A stretch of DNA of 20,000 nucleotides from an uncultured virus (IMG/VR IMGVR_UViG_3300005827_000008) (Duplodnaviria > Heunggongvirae > Uroviricota > Caudoviricetes), in IMG/VR virus record IMGVR_UViG_3300005827_000008. One strand, 5' to 3'. Numbering within the stretch: the first letter of the stretch is position 1; each line of letters starts with the position of its first letter. A program made the position numbers and the translations under genes. The notes under the pieces are model-generated. The model did no database searches. It was not told the origin of the DNA and saw only the letters and a program-made list of their open reading frames with translations. Positions 2,974-20,000 of the stretch are shown one piece after another.

Positions 2974-3894
2974 ATGACAACCCCAGCAGAAACAAAAAAA
3001 CAACTTGCCCCGTGGAAACAGCAGCTTCTCATCGCAGAGCAAAAGTGCCTAGCAATAACCAATCCCGAAAGAGTTAAAATAGAACTTGGCTTTGCAGCGC
3101 AACTTCTACAAAACTCCGCAGACTTGCAAAAATGCACCCCAGAAAGTATTCAGAACGCAGTAATAAATGTTGCACGAACTGGCGTTACCCTTAACCCTAT
3201 TATGAAATTTGCTCACCTTGTTAACCGGGGGGGTAAATGCACACTGGATATTGATTACAAGGGTTTGATTAAGATAATGATTGACAATGAATGTTGTAAA
3301 AACATTATTGCAATCATTGTGTATGACGATGAAGAATTTGAAGAAAGCGAAAGCCCAATCCAACCACACGCCCACAAAAGAAAGCATGTTGACACGGAAG
3401 AAGAACAGGCAAAACGCAAGATAATCGGGGTTTACAGCCGTGTGCTAATGATGGATAACACCGTTATGTACACTGAGTTTATGCCTTACTGGCACGTATT
3501 GAAAGTTGAAAAGTCAAGCCCTGCCGCAAGGTCACAGTATTCACCGTGGAAGTCATGGAGAGAAAGCATGATTAAGAAAACTAAGATTCGCTATGACTTT
3601 AAGTTCCTGCCGCCCCGCAACACGTCAAATGAAATTTCTGCAATTATTGAACTGGAAGATCAGAATAACGGAGCCGCAAAGCCTATTCAAAGCGGGAAAA
3701 GAGGGTTGGCCGATGTATTTAATATTGATGAGGCAAGTTTTGAGGAAATAAGCGATATAACAACCGAAGATCAATTAAGGGAATTGCTTTCAACTAAAAA
3801 CACCCCAGAAGAAGTTGAGGAACTGCAAAAGCAAATAGGGGCAAACTTTCCAAAAGAAATATTTACCGACCGCATAGACCAACTTAAAAAGTAG
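2974..3894 (+). CDS. recT: RecT-family single-strand annealing recombinase
   Basis: LQKCTPESIQNAVINVARTGVTLNP, IDYKGLI and SPWKSWRESMIKKT are typical RecT motifs; paired with the exonuclease. Confidence 0.88.
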   Translation: MTTPAETKKQLAPWKQQLLIAEQKCLAITNPERVKIELGFAAQLLQNSADLQKCTPESIQNAVINVARTGVTLNPIMKFAHLVNRGGKCTLDIDYKGLIKIMIDNECCKNIIAIIVYDDEEFEESESPIQPHAHKRKHVDTEEEQAKRKIIGVYSRVLMMDNTVMYTEFMPYWHVLKVEKSSPAARSQYSPWKSWRESMIKKTKIRYDFKFLPPRNTSNEISAIIELEDQNNGAAKPIQSGKRGLADVFNIDEASFEEISDITTEDQLRELLSTKNTPEEVEELQKQIGANFPKEIFTDRIDQLKK

Positions 3895-3896
3895 GG

Positions 3897-3968
3897 GTGT
3901 GCCGCAGATTTGCAGCAGAATTATTAAGCATCAATATCCCAGACCCAGAAGAACAATTAGCAATATAA
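3897..3968 (+). pseudogene. probable orphan 3' fragment of a NinB/DUF1367-like gene
   Basis: Reads (V)CRRFAAELLSINIPDPEEQLAI*, like the C-terminus of phage NinB-like proteins. An in-frame TAA at 3885-3887 lies upstream, so the N-terminal part is missing. Confidence 0.4.
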
Positions 3969-3971
3969 AGC

Positions 3972-4148
3972 ATGAAAATAACAGTAAAAACCACCATGAT
4001 AGAACTGGCCGTGGAAGACCATGTAGTTCTTGGCACGGATAATTACCCGGCCAGAAGTTTAGCCCCCACTATTGAAGCAGTTCAGGGGGTAATAACAGAA
4101 GCTATCCGGCTTCATAATGAAGTAGCAAAGGGGTATGAAGTAAAGTAA
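3972..4148 (+). CDS. small hypothetical protein (58 aa; not in the ORF track)
   Basis: MKITVKTTMIELAVEDHVVLG...AKGYEVK*; its TAA (4146-4148) is the TAA of the attC-like core TAAC. Confidence 0.7.
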   Translation: MKITVKTTMIELAVEDHVVLGTDNYPARSLAPTIEAVQGVITEAIRLHNEVAKGYEVK

Positions 4149-4275
4149 CGACCGAGTATTGCCGAAGTTGGGGAATTGGCAGTACCGAAGTTGATTTAAA
4201 AACAAATGATAACAAATTATTCAAAAGCCCATCAAAGTACGTCAAGCCCCAATTTTGGCAATACTTATGTTAGGC
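4143..4275 (-). repeat. attC-like recombination site (site A)
   Basis: TAAC 4146-4149 ... GTTAGGC 4269-4275 encloses arms AGTATTGCCGAAGTTGGGG (4155-4173) and CCCCAATTTTGGCAATACT (4247-4265): 17/19 Watson-Crick pairs plus 2 G-T on the + strand, with asymmetric spacers. Confidence 0.75.
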
Positions 4276-4603
4276 ACGGTACGGTAAAATTATGGAATAC
4301 GCTGATGTAATTTCTCTTGGGTGGAAAGATAGAAACCCTGAAAGTAAAAATGAAAATACAAAGACATTTATTTATGAATCCGAAGGTTTTGATTACCACA
4401 TAATGAGTGTCGGATTTGGTTGTGGTGATGATACAGCTTTTGACTTGATAATGATAAACTGTGTGCCTCAAGAAACTGTGTCAAATATTTGGGAAAATTC
4501 CGAAACCCATTTTTACGGTGAAATGAAAACAAAACAAGAGTTAGATATAACAATGCAACTTGTCGGGGTTACTCAATATAGAGGGTTGTAGTATTGTGCC
4601 TAA
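4149..4603 (-). mobile_element. integron-type gene cassette A (attC-like site plus one gene)
   Basis: The gene is bracketed by GTTAGGCACGGTAC (4269-4282) and GTATTGTGCCTAAC (4591-4604), a 12/14 inverted match, as expected for an integrated circular cassette. Confidence 0.7.
4292..4591 (+). CDS. hypothetical protein (cargo of cassette A)
   Basis: 99-aa ORF that fills the space between the two core sites almost exactly. Confidence 0.75.
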   Translation: MEYADVISLGWKDRNPESKNENTKTFIYESEGFDYHIMSVGFGCGDDTAFDLIMINCVPQETVSNIWENSETHFYGEMKTKQELDITMQLVGVTQYRGL

Positions 4604-4704
4604 CATAAAATATGTACCGCACCTCATGTAATTCAATTAAACACAGACAGTTGATATGAACGTTTCTGAACACGTGCAGTTTTTCATTCAGGAAATGAAA
4701 CGCC

Positions 4705-5205
4705 TTACCGCCCCTGCTTATTAGCCGCAATCATTTCCTTAATCTGGTCAAGAGAAAGTAGGCTGTATTCGGCCTTTAACTTTTCAAACAGTTCAAGATA
4801 CTTGGCATAACCAGGGTACTCATGTAGCTTTTCTTTGGCCGCTAGAGTACCTTGATCTATTGTGTTGTGTACCCACGTTTGCAGTAAAACAATGTTTTTA
4901 GGGTTTAACAGCCATGCTTTGTGGTTCTTTTTATTCAGCACATGAGCGCAATTTGACGGGGATGGATTCCTGATGGCAGTACCCGTAATAAAGCAAATGT
5001 GGGGGCGTTCAGCTATTATCTTATCGAAGACAGCCTTTTCCCCTGTCACGGTTCTTTTTTTGCTTATGGCCGTCCTAACAAGCTCTTTTACCAGTTTCCT
5101 TGTGTCAGACCTTTCCCCTTTCACCGGAATCCGGCACTTTGCGCATAATCCATCTTTTAAAGTGGACAGGCGGTTGCAGGTTGAGCAGTAGCCGGGTTTA
5201 TTCAT
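4705..5205 (-). CDS. HNH-like endonuclease (NinG/Ref-like) with N-terminal Zn ribbon
   Basis: CSTC...CAKC ribbon, then CFITG...NCAHVL...NIVLL...HNTID, a degenerate HNH pattern. Confidence 0.6.
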   Translation of the reverse strand: MNKPGYCSTCNRLSTLKDGLCAKCRIPVKGERSDTRKLVKELVRTAISKKRTVTGEKAVFDKIIAERPHICFITGTAIRNPSPSNCAHVLNKKNHKAWLLNPKNIVLLQTWVHNTIDQGTLAAKEKLHEYPGYAKYLELFEKLKAEYSLLSLDQIKEMIAANKQGR

Positions 5206-5704: not shown

Positions 5705-6070
5705 TTACTTGTTAATTGAATTATACCATTTTACGGCATCCACCAAGGCGTTGAATATGTCCGTAACGGTGCCTTTGGTAAAGGCGTGTACAATCCATTC
5801 GTTATGCACCCTTGCGCCTCTTGCGCCCAATGATTCTAATTGCGAATCTTTTTGGTGTTGCACTTCCCTGAATTTCACCCACACAGGCCACAACCAATCG
5901 AGTGAGGCGTGAAATTGAAGCTGGAACCACTCAAAGTCTTTAGCCTCTCCCTTCCACGGGTATGAGTATTTCCACCCTTGCTTGTTTTTGGCTGGCACCT
6001 TTGCTGGGTACACCGTTTTTCCAATAAATTCTGCCAGTACTATATTTCCGGCATTCTCTTGCTCTGTCAT
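5705..6070 (-). CDS. hypothetical phage protein
   Basis: 121-aa ORF in the leftward operon; FHASLDWLWPVW motif. Confidence 0.7.
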   Translation of the reverse strand: MTEQENAGNIVLAEFIGKTVYPAKVPAKNKQGWKYSYPWKGEAKDFEWFQLQFHASLDWLWPVWVKFREVQHQKDSQLESLGARGARVHNEWIVHAFTKGTVTDIFNALVDAVKWYNSINK

Positions 6071-6081
6071 AATTTTACTTG

Positions 6082-6261
6082 TTATTTTTCGTCCATTAAT
6101 TTATTTAATTTCACCAGTTCTGTATCAAAATTTATCCTGTGGCTTGACCTTGTGCCGTCCGTGCGTGTTTTGTACAATACGCCCAGATAAAGGTAGCAGA
6201 CGGTTTTACAGCCGTTGGCTTCTACTGCCTCTACCTTCTGGACTTGTTCTAGTTGTTTCAT
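6082..6261 (-). CDS. small hypothetical protein (59 aa; not in the ORF track)
   Basis: MKQLEQVQKVEAVEANGCK...KLMDEK* fills the gap between neighbouring - strand genes. Confidence 0.6.
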   Translation of the reverse strand: MKQLEQVQKVEAVEANGCKTVCYLYLGVLYKTRTDGTRSSHRINFDTELVKLNKLMDEK

Positions 6262-6265
6262 GAAA

Positions 6266-6541
6266 TTATAGAACTCCCTCGTAAATTGACACCTCGAATT
6301 TATGAGAATAGAAGTCGCCTAGTCCTCCGGCATCAACTTGAAGGGCTGGCTCGTATTCGGGGTGCTTAAAAACCACCTGCGTCCCTTCGTGTATTCTGAT
6401 AAATTCAGAAAGCCCAACATATTTTATAAACCAGTCCATTGACCAGTTATTGTCCATACTTTCTTCCGAAAAGTATCTGTATTCAGTTTCTCCATTTTCA
6501 AAGAAACTATGTACCGTGTTTGGCATGTGATTGTGATTCAT
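6266..6541 (-). CDS. hypothetical protein
   Basis: 91-aa ORF in the operon. Confidence 0.7.
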   Translation of the reverse strand: MNHNHMPNTVHSFFENGETEYRYFSEESMDNNWSMDWFIKYVGLSEFIRIHEGTQVVFKHPEYEPALQVDAGGLGDFYSHKFEVSIYEGVL

Positions 6542-11674: not shown

Positions 11675-11714
11675 ATGCTATCTACCTAACAAGCGTTAGG
11701 CACACCCGCAAAGA

Positions 11715-13246: not shown

Positions 13247-14152
13247 TTAAGAACCGCATTCGGAAAACACCTCACAACTTTCACCGCCCACCAAGTCTAA
13301 GTCTTCATATAATGTTGCTTCGTCAAATTTCATTGCATCATCTATGATTGGCTTAAAATTGGTTTTGCTTTCGTCAATTATATTTTGAACGCTTTTGTTT
13401 TCACGAAAGAACCTTACTGGCATGGTGGGCAGCTCTCCCCGTTCTTTAAGTTTTTTCAACCTTGTTTCAGGCACAAACCTCTCGTATCTCAACTCCATTT
13501 TACCAAAAAAACTAAACGCGTATTCGTTCTCTCTTGCAATCTGATAGAGTTTCGGGTTCCCCTTTTTCCAGCAAGTGATGCAGTTCCCTTGATACCCCTT
13601 CAACTGCAACCTAAACGGCATTTGTGACCACCAAAAGTTAATCTTTGGCTTTGTCATTGGCTGCATATTCTTTGAAATCAACGGGTAGATAAACCCCATT
13701 TCCTTCGCCTTTGCGTTCATCCTGTCAGCTTCATCGGCCCTAATGCCGATGGCTGTACAGTATTTCTTCCAGCCAATGCTTTTTGCGTAGCTTTTAATTG
13801 GGGCTTGTTTTAACTCTCTTGTGCAATGCGGGGTGGCTATGTTGGGGATGCCGTACTTGCGTATAACGTCTTCAAATACCTTTCCGTCTTTATCGGCAGT
13901 ATTGTAATTAACTATTCGGTGCGTACTCCCTTTTCGCTCCCCATGATGCACAACGGTTTCAATCCAAACAACAGGAAATCCAAAATAAACAGAGCATTGA
14001 TTTACAAACCGCAAGGTTTCCTCGTTTTCTTGTCCGGTGTTTGCGAACACGAAAACCATTTCAAACCTGTCTTGACAGTGCTTCCATAGCCATTGAGCCA
14101 TGTAGGCCGAGGTCTCCCCCCCACTAAATGACACTAATAACTTTTTCTTCAT
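13247..14152 (-). CDS. PAPS reductase/DndC-like PP-loop family protein
   Basis: LVSFSGGETSAYM (PP-loop), FANTGQENEETLRFV, CTRELKQAPI, GIRADEADR, GNCITCWKKG. Start is ATG 14152 (MKKKLLVS) or 14167. Confidence 0.85.
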   Translation of the reverse strand: MKKKLLVSFSGGETSAYMAQWLWKHCQDRFEMVFVFANTGQENEETLRFVNQCSVYFGFPVVWIETVVHHGERKGSTHRIVNYNTADKDGKVFEDVIRKYGIPNIATPHCTRELKQAPIKSYAKSIGWKKYCTAIGIRADEADRMNAKAKEMGFIYPLISKNMQPMTKPKINFWWSQMPFRLQLKGYQGNCITCWKKGNPKLYQIARENEYAFSFFGKMELRYERFVPETRLKKLKERGELPTMPVRFFRENKSVQNIIDESKTNFKPIIDDAMKFDEATLYEDLDLVGGESCEVFSECGS

Positions 14153-14171
14153 TCCCGCTTGTTCCATGCTA

Positions 14172-16400: not shown

Positions 16401-16606
16401 TTGTTAGAGTTGCTTAACTTCTCTTTAACTCTCATTAGCCTGTCGTAGTAGGGTTTAAAAACTTTGTTACCTGATCTTGCTTTTAAGAGTATAATGTGTG
16501 ACTTTATAAAGTGTGGTAAATTTAATATTGTTTCGTACTCTGAAAGTATGAGTTTTTGCGGGAGGGATTGGTCGTTAAACCAGAGTTCAAGCTGTTGCAG
16601 GGTCAA
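16397..16606 (-). CDS. small conserved Bacteroidota protein (DUF6965-like, recalled)
   Basis: MTLQQLELWF...LP...ETILNLPHFIKSHI...PYYDRL pattern; family name from memory. Confidence 0.6.
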   Translation of the reverse strand: MTLQQLELWFNDQSLPQKLILSEYETILNLPHFIKSHIILLKARSGNKVFKPYYDRLMRVKEKLSNSNK

Positions 16607-17376
16607 AATTCTCTTTCATTTTGCATCCTAACCAAACATTCGTGTGGGGTTTCGCCTGTTTTTATGCGGTAACTGCACCCAATTGTACCGCCCTTCCACG
16701 AACCTTTTCTTTCGCCAACTTCTTTATCAAATTCAACGGCTATGGTTCTGTGCGTTTTGGCAAATAGCCCCGTCCACTTAAACCACAATGGTCGCCATTC
16801 TCTTTCTTCTACCCCGATTGTTGCGTTTACAATAGTGTTGTCGTATTTGTCAAGGTATTCATGCGTTCCAGTCCATTTGTTTTCATTTAGCCAGTCACGG
16901 CTACCAACAGTGTCTTTGTCTTTGCTCCAATCAACCCGATTAGATTCTGTTTCATGGAACCAGTCATAGCCCCGCTTCATAAGGGTAGATGTTCGTACCC
17001 AAGTCATGTGCCAAGGCAGTGTAATCGCTTTCCATTTTCTGCCGCCTTCAAAATTCCCGGCACCCCCTATGTAAATCCAGATTTTATTGTCATGGAAGTT
17101 TATTCCCCATGCGGCACTGTCGCAATCTTGTATTCCTGTTTTTATGGGTAGGTGAATGTATATTTTCCCATATCCGAATAATAATAAGGGAATGGTGAGC
17201 AAAAACCAGGGGGACTGCGCCACGGCAAAGGGCAACATAATAAGCGCAATAATCTGAGTGATACTTGTGTTCACTTGCGGCCTTTCGTCAAAATATCCGG
17301 CTTTTTCTACATAGAATCCGGCTCTAAATTCAGGGTAAAAGCGTACCCATGTCATGTCTTCTGTTTTATAAGTCAT
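16603..17376 (-). CDS. hypothetical membrane-anchored, Trp-rich protein
   Basis: 257 aa with a hydrophobic stretch IIALIMLPFAVAQSPWFLLTIPLLLFGY. Confidence 0.75.
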   Translation of the reverse strand: MTYKTEDMTWVRFYPEFRAGFYVEKAGYFDERPQVNTSITQIIALIMLPFAVAQSPWFLLTIPLLLFGYGKIYIHLPIKTGIQDCDSAAWGINFHDNKIWIYIGGAGNFEGGRKWKAITLPWHMTWVRTSTLMKRGYDWFHETESNRVDWSKDKDTVGSRDWLNENKWTGTHEYLDKYDNTIVNATIGVEEREWRPLWFKWTGLFAKTHRTIAVEFDKEVGERKGSWKGGTIGCSYRIKTGETPHECLVRMQNEREF

Positions 17377-17402
17377 TTCTTTTATTTGCCGTCTGTGGCT
17401 GT

Positions 17403-17555
17403 TTATTTTACTTTTGTCAATAATGCGGAAATAAGCAAAAACACAGCACCTATCCCCTGCATATAGTTAATGGTTGTCTTTCTTTTCTCATTTAAGAAAA
17501 GGCTTGCAAGCATCAGGGCTGCCCCGGCTGCCAAGAATAGGTACTGATAAAGCAT
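17403..17555 (-). CDS. small two-TM membrane protein (50 aa; not in the ORF track)
   Basis: MLYQYLFLAAGAALMLASLFL-NEKRK-TTINYMQGIGAVFLLISALLTKVK*; starts 5 nt after the upstream stop. Confidence 0.6.
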   Translation of the reverse strand: MLYQYLFLAAGAALMLASLFLNEKRKTTINYMQGIGAVFLLISALLTKVK

Positions 17556-17560
17556 GGTGG

Positions 17561-17788
17561 TTAGTCTAAGGGCTCTAAGTTGTCGTCAAAATAAGCCTTT
17601 GCCACATACCACTGGTCTTCGTGGTTTTTAGGGTTTCTTGCAATATACCCCTGCGCAAAGGCACTAGGGTTGTCTTGCATCAGCTTTTTGTCGGGGTCAG
17701 ATATTGATACCCCCGTTAAATCCTCCCCAGAAACCACTTGTCGCATTTCTGAAATACTTTTTCTTCTGTATTGTTTAAATTCTGACAT
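17561..17788 (-). CDS. conserved hypothetical phage protein
   Basis: FKQYRRK...GYIARNPKNHEDQWYVAKAYFDDN motif. Confidence 0.75.
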   Translation of the reverse strand: MSEFKQYRRKSISEMRQVVSGEDLTGVSISDPDKKLMQDNPSAFAQGYIARNPKNHEDQWYVAKAYFDDNLEPLD

Positions 17789-17819
17789 ATTCTTTATGTT
17801 CGGTTTCCCCGTCCCCGGA

Positions 17820-18335
17820 TTAGTTGTTAAATTTGTTTCTGTAAGTAATAGTGCCGCCCTGTTTTTTTACGATGGGGTATATTTTTGCATACAGCTTTTT
17901 GTAGTAGTTGCGGCTGTCAATTACACCCGGTTGCCCGTTAACTACCCCCAATGCCTTTCCGACAATAAGGCATCCGTCAGTATTATCGTCTGTGTTGCCC
18001 CAATGTATCAGCACGTACTCAAAATTAGGTACATTCATAGCCCATATCAATTCGTGCGGGACGAAATCGGCTGCTTTGGGGTATTTTGTTTTCTCTTTTG
18101 GTTCTATCAGGACTTTCAGGCTTTCGCTCCAAAGGAATGATGAACTAAATTTTGGGGATTGCCGCACCCCTAGTTTGTACGTTCCGTTTGGTATGGCCGT
18201 TTCACCATGAATCTTTACAGCCCTTATTTCATCTTCAACGGCGTATCCGTCCAAGATGCCGTTTATGGACAAGCGGCTGCGGGTTGAGTCCTTTTCAAAC
18301 TCAAATCTTTCAACATCAATTTTTAGTTCTGTCAT
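17820..18335 (-). CDS. DUF5675-family putative L,D-carboxy/transpeptidase
   Basis: GETAIPNGTY...VPNFEYVLIHWGNTDDNTDGCLIVG, the HxGN...GC catalytic pattern of this family in Bacteroidota phages. Confidence 0.8.
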   Translation of the reverse strand: MTELKIDVERFEFEKDSTRSRLSINGILDGYAVEDEIRAVKIHGETAIPNGTYKLGVRQSPKFSSSFLWSESLKVLIEPKEKTKYPKAADFVPHELIWAMNVPNFEYVLIHWGNTDDNTDGCLIVGKALGVVNGQPGVIDSRNYYKKLYAKIYPIVKKQGGTITYRNKFNN

Positions 18336-18346
18336 ATTGCTTTTTA

Positions 18347-18742
18347 TTAACTGTTAATGCTAGTTTGCTGGCCAGATTTAAGCAGTTCTGGATTCTCGTA
18401 GATATTCCCGCAAACTTCATACTCATAGTAATCATGATTATTGCTTAGTGAAAGGAATGCGTTTTTGTTCGGCCAATATTGTTGAGCCTCAAACCTTGCG
18501 GTATTTGCGTTAAACGCCATTTTACAAACAAGCGGGTTCCAATTGCTTTCCTTTGGCTTTGCCGTTAGTATATCTCCCTCGTAAATCTCTTTACCGTTTT
18601 TGTCTTTGATCCCGGTGTATTGCATGACACAAAAACGCTTTTCAGTTCCTTTGGCAAGCGTGTTATCCTTGCCCATTCCGATATTGTTAATCCACATATG
18701 GAGTTCAATATCCCACACTCTAAATTTAATTTCTCTTTTCAT
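18347..18742 (-). CDS. YopX family protein
   Basis: MKREIKFRVWD...MQYTGIKDKNGKEIYEGDIL...EVCGNIYENPELL. Confidence 0.9.
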   Translation of the reverse strand: MKREIKFRVWDIELHMWINNIGMGKDNTLAKGTEKRFCVMQYTGIKDKNGKEIYEGDILTAKPKESNWNPLVCKMAFNANTARFEAQQYWPNKNAFLSLSNNHDYYEYEVCGNIYENPELLKSGQQTSINS

Positions 18743-18915
18743 GTTGCTTTTCTAGTTAAAATATAGTTTGTTAATTCAATAATTTCTGTATTGAGTTCTG
18801 TCTGCTTTGTCTTATTCCCTTCATCAAACGCCCGCTTTAAAAGAAGTGTTAAAATTAGCAATTGTTTTTCAATATGCCAAATGTGAAGATTGGGGTTAGG
18901 GTTGGAATATCTCAT
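18739..18915 (-). CDS. small hypothetical protein (58 aa; not in the ORF track)
   Basis: MRYSNPNPNLHIWHIEKQLL...ILTRKAT*; ATGA-coupled to the YopX gene. Confidence 0.6.
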   Translation of the reverse strand: MRYSNPNPNLHIWHIEKQLLILTLLLKRAFDEGNKTKQTELNTEIIELTNYILTRKAT

Positions 18916-18985
18916 TTTTCTTTTGCGGATTATTCGTCAATGTCTCCAAGCATTGTTATACCAGTTAGTTATACATATACGCAAG

Positions 18986-19366
18986 TTATGCGTTATTGTA
19001 AAGAGGCACATCGTAACCTTTAGCTATTAAGTATTTAATTGTTTCAAAACAGACACGATTTCTTTGTTTCGGGTCTTGTTCTTTATTTTTTTCATAATCT
19101 TTTGAATAGTGCCAGTGAAAGTCTTTCCACTTGAAAAAGAACACATAATCAGCAGATTTCATATTGTCAGAAACTCTGTAAGAAGTATAATCTAAAACAA
19201 GTGTGTCGCTAAACATTTTATTGTCAAAATCTGTAATTACAGGCTCGTTCCAAATCTTTTCTCCATTGTGCATTATCACTGGACAACATCCTTCAATAAT
19301 CACTATTTGCAGTAAATCTTCTGCGGTCATTTCTTTTAGCGGTTTATTACCAATTTCTATTATCAT
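18986..19366 (-). CDS. hypothetical protein (cargo of cassette B)
   Basis: ATG at 19366 (MIIEIGNK); the stop TAA is the TAA of the core site. The ORF-track GTG at 19405 lies inside the attC-like site. Confidence 0.75.
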   Translation of the reverse strand: MIIEIGNKPLKEMTAEDLLQIVIIEGCCPVIMHNGEKIWNEPVITDFDNKMFSDTLVLDYTSYRVSDNMKSADYVFFFKWKDFHWHYSKDYEKNKEQDPKQRNRVCFETIKYLIAKGYDVPLYNNA

Positions 19367-19519
19367 AATTTTGAATTTGCGAAGAACAACAACGCATAAC
19401 AGCACCTACCCAAAAGCGGGGTTTCAGTGGTATTATGTGGTTTTGTGCTTCTATTTAAGTTCATTGTAAATTGACAGTTTTGTGTTCCAAATTCCCCGCC
19501 TTCGGGTAGCTGCAACACG
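18986..19519 (+). mobile_element. integron-type gene cassette B
   Basis: G|TTATGCGTTATTGT (18985-18999) versus ACAACAACGCATAAC (19386-19400), a 14/15 inverted match around the gene, followed by an attC-like hairpin. Confidence 0.75.
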
Positions 19520-19525
19520 TTATGT
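19394..19525 (+). repeat. attC-like recombination site (site B)
   Basis: GCATAAC ... GTTATGT with arms GCACCTACCCAAAAGCGGGG (19402-19421) and CCCCGCCTTCGGGTAGCTGC (19494-19513); two of the three mismatches become G-T on the - strand. Confidence 0.8.
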
Positions 19526-19935
19526 GCAAGGCTACTGACCGTCTTCGATAGAAAGTTTAGACAATATAGTATCTGCTGTTTTAATCGCTACTTCTGCAAC
19601 AATTTCACTTTGCATTAAATACTTTTCGCCTTTGTATTCTTTCATCCATTCTGGATTAGAAAGTAGTCCTTGCATTGCGTTTGCTATAAAATATTCCCTT
19701 TTAGTAAGTCCAGCCGAATATGCTTTAACTGCTGCTACTGTTTGTCCTGTTTCTAAGGTCCTATTCACTTTGAAAGGGAATATTGATTTGTCTGCGTTTT
19801 TCATTTGTATATTTATTTAAGTGATTACTAATTTAACCGTGCCTATCTGCTAACATTGGCTAAACAAAAGCGGCATAGCGCACTGCCAAAAGTTACCACA
19901 AAAGTTTGTTGCCGCTTTTGTTTAGCCAAATACCG
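19520..19935 (+). mobile_element. integron-type gene cassette C
   Basis: Begins at G|TTATGTG, carries one gene and ends in attC-like site C; end-to-end core match is only 9/14. Confidence 0.6.
19532..19804 (-). CDS. conserved hypothetical phage protein (cargo of cassette C)
   Basis: GLTKREYFIANAMQGLLSN...AIKTADTILSKL matches the common phage GmTlRdYFAa.AMqg...AD.ml family. Confidence 0.8.
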   Translation of the reverse strand: MKNADKSIFPFKVNRTLETGQTVAAVKAYSAGLTKREYFIANAMQGLLSNPEWMKEYKGEKYLMQSEIVAEVAIKTADTILSKLSIEDGQ

Positions 19936-19941
19936 TTACTT
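19848..19941 (+). repeat. attC-like recombination site (site C)
   Basis: TGCTAAC ... GTTACTT enclosing a perfect 20-bp inverted repeat, TTGGCTAAACAAAAGCGGCA (19856-19875) / TGCCGCTTTTGTTTAGCCAA (19910-19929). Confidence 0.7.
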
Positions 19942-19998
19942 CCTTTTTAATTTTACCACATACTCTTTATTCTCAATACTTATCCCAACACACACTAC
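19936..19998 (-). CDS. 3' end of a gene running in from the right edge
   Basis: Open frame VVCVGISIENKEYVVKLKRK*; its TAA coincides with the core of site C. Confidence 0.5.
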   Translation of the reverse strand, partial: VVCVGISIENKEYVVKLKRK

Positions 19999-20000
19999 TG

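Follow-up and report, generated by a model that had tools for sequence, protein, structure and literature searches.

The block at positions 18985-19941 of the window, the 20,000-nt stretch of uncultured Caudoviricetes DNA analysed here, is genuine and represents a decayed member of an integron variant that has hardly been described. We consider it probable that this block is the recombinase-distal remnant of a type of integron-like cassette array that is native to Bacteroidota and their phages. Judged from sequence, it departs from the canonical integron: no integrase is encoded in the window, and the recombinases of related arrays lack the IntI-specific domain. The likeness to integron arrays, proposed in the sequence-only reading, is upheld by covarying hairpins, self-complementary cassette ends, breaks of homology at the cores, and a recombinase at a fixed array end.

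On the minus (coding) strand, the block runs in the order of a stop codon in a TAAC core, an 88-nt hairpin, gene C, a 126-nt hairpin, gene B, and another stop codon in a TAAC core. The gene entering from the right edge of the window (3' end at 19936-20000, ORF 19936-19998, minus strand) has its TAA stop at 19936-19938, within the TAAC core of hairpin C (GTTA at 19935-19938 on the plus strand), and may belong either to another cassette or to the backbone. Hairpin C (19851-19938, minus strand) belongs to the short class and measures 88 nt from TAAC to GTTA, with TAACG, a spacer, a perfect 20-bp stem, a 34-nt loop, and TGTTA. It is followed by gene C (19532-19804, minus strand, 90 aa), whose TAG stop is 10 nt ahead of the next TAAC at 19519-19522. 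This TAAC begins hairpin B (19397-19522, minus strand), a 126-nt hairpin of the long class whose coding strand contains two G.T wobbles. Gene B (18986-19366, minus strand, 126 aa) comes last, and its TAA stop is within the core at 18985-18988. Cassette B, consisting of hairpin B and gene B, spans 18985-19522 from TAAC to TAAC on the minus strand, and cassette C spans 19519-19938 on the same strand when the array is cut between TAA and C of the cores. The sequence-only reading had described this layout as core, gene, hairpin, gene, hairpin, core, with genes ending at or near a core and the right-edge gene stopping on a core TAA, and all of these parts were found in place.

Gene B is flanked on both sides by a perfect 10-nt inverted repeat (GTTATGCGTT...AACGCATAAC), and the ends of cassette B are complementary at 10 of 10 nucleotides including the core. 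Only 1 of 6 flank nucleotides is complementary at the ends of cassette C in the window, unlike the homologues of this cassette in loci L001 and L002, whose ends are complementary; this point is at odds with the integron-like reading. After the last cassette there is a short box, TAAC-N5-TATATGTA (18972-18988, minus strand), with no hairpin beyond it. The box fits the motif exactly, is the only match to this motif in the window, and is a candidate equivalent of attI.

Both hairpins fold more strongly than expected by chance. Modelled as single-stranded DNA, hairpin B has a folding energy of -22.2 kcal/mol on the coding strand (z -3.5, equalled by 1 of 200 shuffles), versus -13.8 kcal/mol on the complement, and hairpin C has one of -25.6 kcal/mol on the coding strand (z -5.3, equalled by 0 of 200 shuffles). 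A covariance model made from 16 related hairpins scored hairpin B at 108.2 bits and hairpin C at 46.6 bits (E 1.9e-7), and the sole further strong match in the 20-kb window, at 4142-4276, scored 79.7 bits (hairpin A). Sites of this family contain TAACG, a 5-nt spacer, a covarying stem of ~20 bp, a loop, and TGTTA, and they fall into two tight length classes of ~126 nt and ~88 nt. When 16 long hairpins were aligned, the main stem was 82% paired, versus 37-42% in slid controls for the same stem alignment, and 17 of the 20 pairs varied on both sides. In this alignment, TAAC and GTTA are near-invariant and 97% paired, versus 45% for the 4-nt flanks outside one hairpin. This covariation of stem pairs indicates that the hairpin is under selection as a structure. 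One G.T pair is conserved in 13 of the 16 hairpins, the spacer is asymmetric (5 nt after TAAC and 0-2 nt before GTTA), and no bulged bases of the canonical type were identified. The model has 311 matches in 72 viral loci, and the family is spread over at least 130 viral contigs and at least 131 genome contigs, the latter mostly from Bacteroidota. Hairpin B is 38-68% identical to other long hairpins, and hairpins inside one genome are ~41-53% alike. An Rfam search of the window gave no match with E up to 1, and the exact 20-nt arm of hairpin C had no match among viral or metagenome contigs.

Complementarity was found at the ends of cassettes and not at the flanks of hairpins, which is the signature of an integron. 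In a set of 199 phage cassettes, complementarity between the 6 nt that follow GTTA and the 6 nt that precede the next TAAC averages 5.0/6 positions, and 107 cassettes reach 6/6. The two flanks of a single hairpin average 2.27/6, and shuffled partners average 2.24, with none of 200 shuffles above 2.44. The corresponding values for 50 bacterial cassettes are 5.18/6 at cassette ends and 2.49/6 at one-hairpin flanks.

Comparisons between viral loci suggest that these units change places. Positions 18985-19519 of the window match positions 5851-6385 of viral contig L004 at 89.7% nucleotide identity, core to core, and the neighbours of cassette B in that contig differ, with unrelated DNA on both sides. 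L001 and L002 share the gene C cassette at 90% identity, with the match running precisely from GTTA to TAAC and different hairpins on both sides. Gene order among relatives, which had been put forward as a check, is not conserved, and B and C are never adjacent in five related viral loci. Blastn endpoints among viral loci lie at most 12 nt from a hairpin end in 82 of 294 cases, versus 2% of random positions, and 72 of these 82 are at the 5' TAAC side; many TAAC endpoints come from short matches spanning the hairpin and ~25 nt, which family-level similarity could yield. Some exchanges break at the GTTA side or do not touch the gene, which would not be predicted by one fixed crossover point. Two hairpin-plus-leader modules in L005 (749-897 and 3899-4048) are 98.7% identical and stand ahead of different genes. 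When window positions 17000-20000 were searched with blastn against 50,697 phage records, only short YopX-type matches were returned. The searches yielded no close relative sharing the backbone of this phage, and consequently neither a recombination event nor a circle nor an empty site was observed for it. A scan for inverted pairs of the form GTTA-N6...N6-TAAC detected 5 per strand (the same pairs on both), versus a shuffle mean of 8.2 for both strands together; the scan gives no evidence of cassettes beyond A and B.

The window contains a second array, which has one cassette and is headed by hairpin A (4146-4272, plus strand, long class, 127 nt). Gene A (4292-4591, plus strand, 99 aa) lies within the inverted repeat TATGTTAGGCAC / GTGCCTAACATA. 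Cassette A is followed by a terminal box, TAAC ATAAAATATGTAC... (4601-4627, plus strand), which is a looser version of the box described above and is homologous to the region before the recombinase gene of locus L021. Further on is a relic of a recombinase gene (4656-4724, plus strand), with 22 codons and then a stop. The first 16 codons of the relic share 75% identity with the N-terminus of the L021 recombinase (tblastn E 0.012), and the DNA alignment of the relic and the L021 gene has 77% column identity. No intact recombinase was found in the 20-kb window, nor any PF00589 domain or homologue beyond the 16-codon relic.

Related arrays do carry recombinase genes in some cases. PF00589 is present in 11 of 50 related viral records and absent from the other 39, including 9 of the 12 with at least 90% completeness; a recombinase was also absent from all five viral records of a separate check. 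These absences weigh against the integron-like reading. Nine of the 11 PF00589 genes encode proteins of 266-298 aa; these nine share the strand of the hairpins and start 0.2-1.2 kb past the last hairpin detected. All nine match TIGR02249, the integron integrase model, in two stretches that skip profile positions ~181-238, and their scores are 136-170 bits versus a cut-off of 265. The matching gap in recombinases from bacterial genomes is 14 aa versus 56 profile positions. According to these profile matches, the array recombinase is a small Xer/IntI-like enzyme that has no IntI-specific domain. The same recombinase type heads the array in all three mapped bacterial genomes and in one Chryseobacterium plasmid, and there was no over-threshold match to TIGR02249 among the five host-type genomes searched. 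An NCBIfam search of 79 ORFs of 230-330 aa, taken from 22 bacterial loci with 10-kb flanks, detected no recombinase; the recombinases were missed because of the size filter and the 10-kb flanks, and were later found by whole-genome search. A box of the form TAAC-N3-5-TATAT is located, by our reading, ~50 nt before the recombinase start in seven of the nine such phage arrays and is also present in two of the three bacterial arrays. The window has such a box at both array ends, the exact one at 18972-18988 and the looser one at 4601-4627. At locus L222/L286, an Lnu(H)-family gene is the first cassette beside the recombinase. No family hairpin was found in the tet(X3) locus with E up to 0.1.

Gene C contains a variable N-terminus and a conserved C-terminal domain of ~60 aa, and its structure model is of moderate quality (pLDDT 75.4). 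It matches PHROG 2201 (E 1e-8) and has relatives in viral contigs, consistent with the earlier claim that cassette C carries a phage gene family. Gene B has no Pfam or PHROG match, and its 35 homologues are all unnamed. The structure model of gene B is confident (pLDDT 87.3, pTM 0.81). Foldseek against the PDB gave no clear fold relative for this model (best E 0.29), VIA-align gave generic alpha+beta folds of the VirB8, cystatin or NTF2 kind (best Z 4.9), and the best match in BFVD was an uncharacterised phage protein (E 0.02). DNA methyltransferases account for 26 of 120 phage cassette ORFs versus 0 of 42 ORFs of bacterial arrays, which supports the proposal that the cargo is of phage type and not ordinary bacterial integron cargo. 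The two kinds of array also differ in strand: 146 of 151 phage cassette ORFs share the strand of the hairpin and point towards the recombinase end, whereas 30 of 42 cassette ORFs in bacterial arrays are on the strand opposite the hairpin. Since the phage cassette genes read towards the recombinase end, a promoter located there cannot drive them.

Integrons are defined by an integrase, IntI, with an additional domain, and by an attI site next to the integrase gene, which is the main insertion point. Their cassette genes read away from the integrase end and are driven by the promoter Pc, and the ends of a cassette are complementary, as both come from one circular attC. The attC site is an imperfect palindrome, ~57-141 bp long, whose inverse core ends in AAC and whose core starts with GTT, and it folds as a hairpin in which an unpaired central spacer and extrahelical bases set the strand choice. 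The window hairpins agree with this palindrome in length (88 and 126 nt), in their paired TAAC and GTTA (97%), and in their covarying stem. Like sedentary chromosomal integrons, the arrays described here have a tyrosine recombinase of the Xer/IntI clade at one end, and they resemble integrons in the folded imperfect palindromes with TAAC/GTTA cores between genes, in the complementary cassette ends, and in the breakpoints at the core. Unlike integrons, they have a recombinase without the extra domain that defines IntI, sites whose spacer is asymmetric and whose lengths fall into two narrow classes (~126 and ~88 nt), and phage genes that read towards the recombinase end. Hairpins B and C are 329 nt apart, and no integrase is found in the 20-kb window; whether they form a CALIN, that is, at least two attC sites close together with no integrase nearby, depends on whether these sites count as attC.

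The closest published system is that of the phage CALINs of Qi 2023 (Front Microbiol, PMC9892861). That article reports 17 CALINs in 10,705 phage genomes, which it reads as parts of bacterial integrons served by IntI. The likeness comprises rows of small genes between attC-type hairpins, phage genomes without an integrase, and DNA methyltransferase cargo. A predicted attC site in Polaribacter phage P12002L is listed there (section 3.4, supplementary Table S3), and we found that this site, P12002L_attC1, maps to 30037-30056 of L006 and matches the family covariance model. According to section 3.4 of the same article, IntI1 gave no verified recombinants with P12002L_attC1. Compared with these CALINs, the family described here is large and has its own terminal box and its own Xer-like recombinase, which lacks the IntI domain, and its cassette genes in phages are on the opposite strand. 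The PeSL of T4-type phages (Arbiol et al. 2010, PMC2839356) are also similar, being stem-loop modules between small non-essential genes that mark points of gain, loss and swap. For PeSL, mini-circles are proposed as vehicles, and exchange occurs by homologous recombination between near-identical promoter-terminator modules with no dedicated recombinase; the arrays here differ in their linked recombinase, in 4-nt cores that do not vary, and in inverted repeats specific to each cassette. In Riemerella anatipestifer, a gene with a 140-bp 3' stem-loop integrates without flanking homology (PMC13148043). The genes concerned are resistance genes, and the authors note the likeness of the stem-loop to attC. 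By its description, this case resembles ours in the Flavobacteriales host and in the movement of a gene and a stem-loop as one unit; it concerns bacterial chromosomes, and the paper names no enzyme or array.

Three other explanations have to be weighed against an integron-like array. We consider it unlikely that the hairpins are regulatory connectors in mRNA (terminators, processing or stabilising elements, and perhaps a promoter in the loop) and that genes are shuffled by homologous recombination between similar hairpins, as in the PeSL. The coincidence of hairpin strand and coding strand in nearly all phage cassette ORFs fits such connectors, as do the identical hairpin-plus-leader modules ahead of different genes in L005. 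In 260 of 294 hairpins the coding strand also folds better through conserved G.T pairs, a count in which the strand was partly picked by pairing. As the hairpins of phage arrays are on the coding strand and have conserved G.U-compatible pairs, an RNA role is equally allowed for them. A recombinase is missing from most carrier phages, annealing proteins of the RecT or Rad52 type are encoded (window 2974-3894 and L004), and exchange and mini-circles are documented for PeSL (PMC2839356). However, homologous exchange between hairpins would leave unexplained both the 10-nt inverted repeat that each cassette has of its own around the invariant TAAC/GTTA and the recombinase with a conserved terminal box at one fixed array end. 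The same sites bound bacterial genes on the opposite strand and are hence outside their sense transcript, and the likeness of hairpins within one genome is only ~41-53%. A scan for promoter-like sites of the sigma-70 type, which excludes Bacteroidota promoters, found 4 versus 4.8 expected, and the same scan found 2 terminator-like sites versus 0.6 expected.

It is quite improbable that the sites are ordinary integron attC sites, forming a CALIN that came from a bacterial integron and is served by the canonical IntI of the host. The recombinases linked to the arrays lack the IntI-specific segment and score far below the TIGR02249 cut-off, and none of the five host-type genomes searched had an over-threshold match, although the linked recombinases stand closest to IntI among NCBIfam models after archaeal XerA. 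The build of the sites is similar to that of attC (inverse core TAAC, 5-nt spacer, imperfect palindrome of 88-126 nt, core GTTA), HattCI called the family member P12002L_attC1 an attC (PMC9892861), and the aadA7 attC oligo in the supplement of that article also has the form TAACG...TGTTA. The asymmetric spacer (5 nt versus 0-2 nt) is nevertheless unlike the aadA7 site, the cassette genes of phages run the opposite way from those in bacterial arrays, and their cargo differs from bacterial cargo. The failure of IntI1 to yield recombinants with P12002L_attC1, as reported in section 3.4 of PMC9892861, also argues against this origin, and it counts against the integron-like array as well. Finally, the dispersal of repeated hairpins with fixed 4-nt ends over many genomes might recall non-autonomous transposable elements, either MITE-like or of the IS200/IS605 type, that insert between genes. 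This origin is extremely improbable, as the Y1 HUH transposase (PF01797) occurs in 0 of 30 hairpin-bearing viral records, the hairpins stand in regular gene-by-gene arrays on one strand, their flanks pair across the gene with no pattern of target duplication, and the linked enzyme is a tyrosine recombinase.

In the integron-like array that we favour, the unit would be a folded recombination site with the gene 3' of it on the same strand, and units would be cut and joined between TAA and C of the cores. A small tyrosine recombinase may bind the hairpin folded from one DNA strand and excise cassettes as circles, which could then be reinserted at the terminal box or at another hairpin, in the way IntI acts on attC and attI. 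The short box at 18972-18988 would mark the array end, as such a box directly precedes the recombinase gene in related arrays. The cassettes would now be fixed in this phage unless a host or a co-infecting phage provides the enzyme. On the whole we lean towards a joint reading, in which a full analogue of the integron is common to Bacteroidota and their phages and mostly escapes standard integron tools. Its parts would be a compact Xer-like recombinase without the IntI domain, folded sites of ~126 and ~88 nt, a short terminal insertion box, and phage cassettes of DNA methyltransferases and other counter-defence genes on the strand opposite the bacterial ones. This phage would have lost the recombinase, leaving the relic at 4656, and kept two frozen arrays, whose cassettes could be mobilised in trans by a host or a co-infecting phage.

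The window adds an example of decay to this type of array, as it combines two arrays with a terminal box that is intact and a recombinase gene that is truncated. Integron surveys may undercount such arrays, as the requirement for the IntI domain would overlook the whole branch. If true, our reading would supply an enzyme and a site logic for the attC-like clusters in virulent phages without integrase (PMC9892861) and for the homology-independent integration of genes with 3' stem-loops in Riemerella (PMC13148043). It would also account for the passage of small accessory genes, chiefly anti-restriction methyltransferases, between unrelated phages. If a dedicated recombinase does move these cassettes, phages of a major bacterial phylum would own a gene-capture platform.

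At the right end of the window, the coding strand is the minus strand, along which the order is edge gene, hairpin C, gene C, hairpin B and gene B. The edge gene stops on a TAA within the TAAC core at 19935-19938. Hairpin C (19851-19938) is 88 nt long, with a perfect 20-bp stem, a 34-nt loop and a GTTA end, and the stop of gene C (19532-19804, 90 aa) lies 10 nt ahead of the next TAAC. Hairpin B (19397-19522) is 126 nt long, and the TAA of gene B (18986-19366, 126 aa) lies within the last TAAC (18985-18988). Hairpin B folds at -22.2 kcal/mol on the coding strand (z -3.5) versus -13.8 on the complement (z -0.6), and hairpin C at -25.6 kcal/mol (z -5.3); these low folding energies support both hairpins. 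The sequence-only reading had described a two-cassette integron-like array here, and this array is real and was correctly read, with hairpins, cores and gene ends all as claimed. Searching the window with R1, a covariance model of the hairpin family built from 16 related long hairpins, gave three sites, each on the coding strand of the adjoining genes. On the plus strand, hairpin A (4146-4272), built like hairpins B and C, lies upstream of gene A (4292-4591). Cassette B ends in the inverted repeat GTTATGCGTT...AACGCATAAC and cassette A in TATGTTAGGCAC...GTGCCTAACATA. The ends of cassette C are not complementary in the window (1/6); its homologues in viral contigs L001 and L002 have the complementary ends GTTAGCAG...CTGCTAAC.

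Two further sites in the window carry cores. A 58-aa gene upstream of hairpin A (3972-4148) also stops on a TAAC core; no hairpin lies upstream of it in the window, and its homologue in viral locus L014 (452-613) is flanked by hairpins on both sides and is thus a cassette gene there. The core type of cassette A, GTTAGGCAC, recurs at 11688-11705 in a third exact copy, within the mini-palindrome CCTAAC-AAGC-GTTAGG, in a convergent gap directly past a terminator-like hairpin. This mini-palindrome could be either an unoccupied site or what remains of a cassette that was lost.

The gene layout of the window is phage-like, with small, closely packed genes grouped in single-orientation blocks. Profile matches identified RecT (2974-3894), an HTH regulator, a PAPS-reductase-like gene (13247-14167), a DUF6965 gene, a gene of the CBASS inhibitor family Acb3 (16603-17376; PF25187, E 4e-35), a DUF5675 gene and a YopX gene (18347-18742). 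The Acb3-family gene shares one leftward block with YopX and DUF5675. A search of 50,697 phage records gave no close relative of the window.

Five IMG/VR contigs contain relatives of genes B and C, set in rows of hairpins of the same family. In the 16 aligned long hairpins, 5' TAACG and 3' TGTTA are invariant, the stem is ~20 bp, and the spacer is asymmetric, with 5 nt following TAAC and just 0-2 nt ahead of GTTA. In the main stem, 82% of cells are paired, compared with 37-42% for slid partners, and both sides vary in 17 of 20 pairs; at one stem position, 13 of the 16 sequences have a G.U-compatible pair. TAAC pairs with GTTA in 97% of cells and is near-invariant, and the 4-nt flanks outside one hairpin are paired in 45%, which is background level. 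With a strict pattern, viral contigs gave at least 130 matching stretches and species-representative genomes at least 131, almost all from Bacteroidota. R1 gave 311 matches in 72 viral loci (E <=0.001) and 138 in 44 bacterial loci (E <=1e-5), with at least a dozen hairpins per array in some loci. Two length classes were seen among 294 viral hairpins, 206 being 120-130 nt long and 65 being 70-100 nt. In the ~70-nt loops of long hairpins (e.g., L004 5847-5973 and L001 5824-5949), an A-rich motif of ~25 nt (...GCAC-A-AAC...ACCAC type), recognized by eye only, occurs twice as direct repeats, which suggests a protein-binding or promoter element.

Our own hairpin finder is less sensitive than R1, above all in bacterial loci. 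For segments between consecutive hairpins located with this finder, we compared the 6 nt past GTTA with the 6 nt ahead of the next TAAC. Complementarity across phage cassettes averaged 5.0/6 (n=199; 107 at 6/6), versus 2.27/6 for the two flanks of one hairpin (n=293) and 2.24/6 for shuffled partners (maximum 2.44 in 200 shuffles). Bacterial cassettes averaged 5.18/6 (n=50), versus 2.49/6 for the two flanks of one hairpin. This is the pattern expected had each cassette once been a core-closed circle. Two L005 cassettes, in which one hairpin with a 22-nt leader (749-897 and 3899-4048, 98.7% identical) precedes two different genes, end in identical TACTGCTAAC, and a small set of end types seems to be common to unrelated genes.

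Comparisons among loci show these units in differing company. Cassette B (18985-19519) matches L004 5851-6385 at 89.7%, core to core, and its neighbours in L004 are a DUF551-like gene on one side and, on the other, a hairpin and then a PAPS-reductase-like gene. The gene B homologue in L005 (65% amino acid identity) again has the ends GTTATGCG...CGCATAAC, with different neighbours. The neighbours of gene C homologues in L001-L003 also differ from those in the window, and B and C are never adjacent in the five related viral loci. Between L001 and L002, the gene C segment is 90% identical with limits exactly from GTTA to TAAC, and the hairpins on either side differ. In blastn comparisons of viral loci, 82 of 294 endpoints are no more than 12 nt from a hairpin end, versus 2% for random positions, and part of this excess may come from family likeness, as many of the matches are short (hairpin plus ~25 nt). 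The 5' TAAC side accounts for 72 of these endpoints and the GTTA side for 10, so what loci most often share is a hairpin together with the sequence after it. The arms of hairpin B match the L002 hairpin downstream of gene C and its loop is nearer to the L004 hairpin upstream of gene B, so exchanges are not always at one point.

Gene B matched nothing in Pfam or PHROG and has 35 unnamed, metagenomic homologues; its structure model is confident, and structure searches gave no clear fold relative. Gene C matches PHROG 2201 (E 1e-8) and has 99 homologues, many of which align over the C-terminal two-thirds only, at 86-92% identity. The gene is modular: the last ~60 residues show this identity in many homologues, and the N-terminal ~30 differ. 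We surveyed 120 of 151 phage cassette ORFs, leaving out the shortest, opposite-strand and duplicate-locus ORFs and gene C. Forty had a Pfam match, of which 26 were DNA methyltransferases, three YopX, two PAPS-reductase-like, two RNA ligases and one a TET-associated glycosyltransferase; the remainder were single matches. Nine of 42 bacterial-array ORFs had a Pfam match, including ankyrin, SUKH, cation efflux and FAD monooxygenase, and none was a methyltransferase. Bacterial arrays also contain or adjoin SDR, AraC, Lnu(H)-family and Mph(E)/Mph(G)-family genes. The proposal that the cassette pool consists of phage-type genes is supported in the form of two cargo pools, with methyltransferases in 26 of 120 phage versus 0 of 42 bacterial ORFs. 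On a Penaeicola halotolerans contig (L222/L286), the first cassette past the recombinase is a Lnu(H)-family gene, and the array also carries a macrolide phosphotransferase gene of the Mph(E)/Mph(G) family.

Profile searches found no tyrosine recombinase encoded in the window, and none was found in the five viral records first examined, two of them complete genomes. PF00589, the tyrosine recombinase family, is present in 11 of 50 further viral records. Nine of these genes encode 266-298 aa on the hairpin strand and start 0.2-1.2 kb past the last detected hairpin; the other two are larger integrases elsewhere in their records. The nine array recombinases score best with archaeal XerA (172-207 bits, cut-off 220), and align to the integron-integrase model in two stretches that leave out the IntI-defining segment (profile positions ~181-238). 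All three Bacteroidota genomes mapped contain the same kind of recombinase gene, then an array within 0.65-1.1 kb; their other arrays are without a recombinase. A Chryseobacterium plasmid (L290, NZ_CP041688.1, 7770-16470) bears a recombinase-headed array of the same layout with at least four strong hairpins, cassettes including Crp/Fnr, RidA and metallophosphoesterase genes, and interruptions by an IS110 and a group II intron. Plasmid sequences also yielded close homologues of the phage array recombinase, in Acinetobacter (51.7% identity, 84% query coverage). In the one plasmid examined (L289, NZ_CP041297.1, 6052-8073), a shortened copy lies directly upstream of tet(X3), and R1 found no family hairpin at this locus at E <=0.1; the recombinase copy may be left from an origin of tet(X3) in a Bacteroidota cassette.

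With the array read on the hairpin (R1) strand, the recombinase is always at its 3' end. In phage arrays, cassette genes (146/151) and recombinase are both on this strand. In bacterial arrays, 30 of 42 genes are on the opposite strand with the hairpin close behind the gene, as in integrons, and the 12 exceptions come mostly from two loci with phage-like content. As the aadA7 attC oligonucleotide in the supplement of PMC9892861 reads TAACG...TGTTA, like R1, R1 probably models the counterpart of the recombined bottom strand. With the strands so mapped, the breakpoint excess at the R1 5' TAAC would agree with the canonical crossover point.

In recombinase-bearing phage arrays, the last cassette is followed by a self-complementary TAAC with no hairpin after it, and then, in seven of nine arrays judged by reading, by an N3-5-TATAT box ~50 nt ahead of the recombinase start. 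The same box with the same polarity is found in two of three bacterial arrays. The sole match to this motif in the 20 kb is TAACTTGCGTATATGTA at 18972-18988, and a looser box, TAACATAAAATATGTAC, lies past cassette A. The strict motif occurs at 10 of 73 inferred array ends, a list including false ends where our own finder missed the next hairpin, versus 1.8% of random 13-nt windows. At 4656-4724, 51 nt past cassette A, a 22-codon open frame starting MNVSEHVQFFIQEMKR shares 75% of its first 16 residues with the N-terminus of the recombinase of viral locus L021 (tblastn E 0.012). The DNA alignment with L021 starts at the core, continues across the box and is lost inside the gene, and we read this frame as a deleted recombinase gene. 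No such relic was found past cassette B by tblastn.

Qi et al. 2023 (PMC9892861) reported 17 CALINs (attC clusters without integrase) in 10,705 phage genomes, one of them in Polaribacter phage P12002L, whose attC1 was not recombined by IntI1. We mapped this attC1 as a member of the hairpin family. In Riemerella, a gene with an attC-like 3' stem-loop of 140 bp is reported to integrate independently of homology, by a mechanism unknown in that paper (PMC13148043). PeSL shuffling is described in PMC2839356, the review PMC8618304 places Bacteroidota among integron-bearing phyla, and Bacteroidetes go unmentioned in the searched text of Cury et al. In literature searches that covered few subscription journals, we found no published description of the recombinase-linked hairpin system or its phage form. 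The right-end block belongs, as a small member lacking a recombinase, to an integron variant whose mechanism we infer from anatomy and comparison. Little has been published on this variant, which is widespread among Bacteroidota and the phages that infect them.
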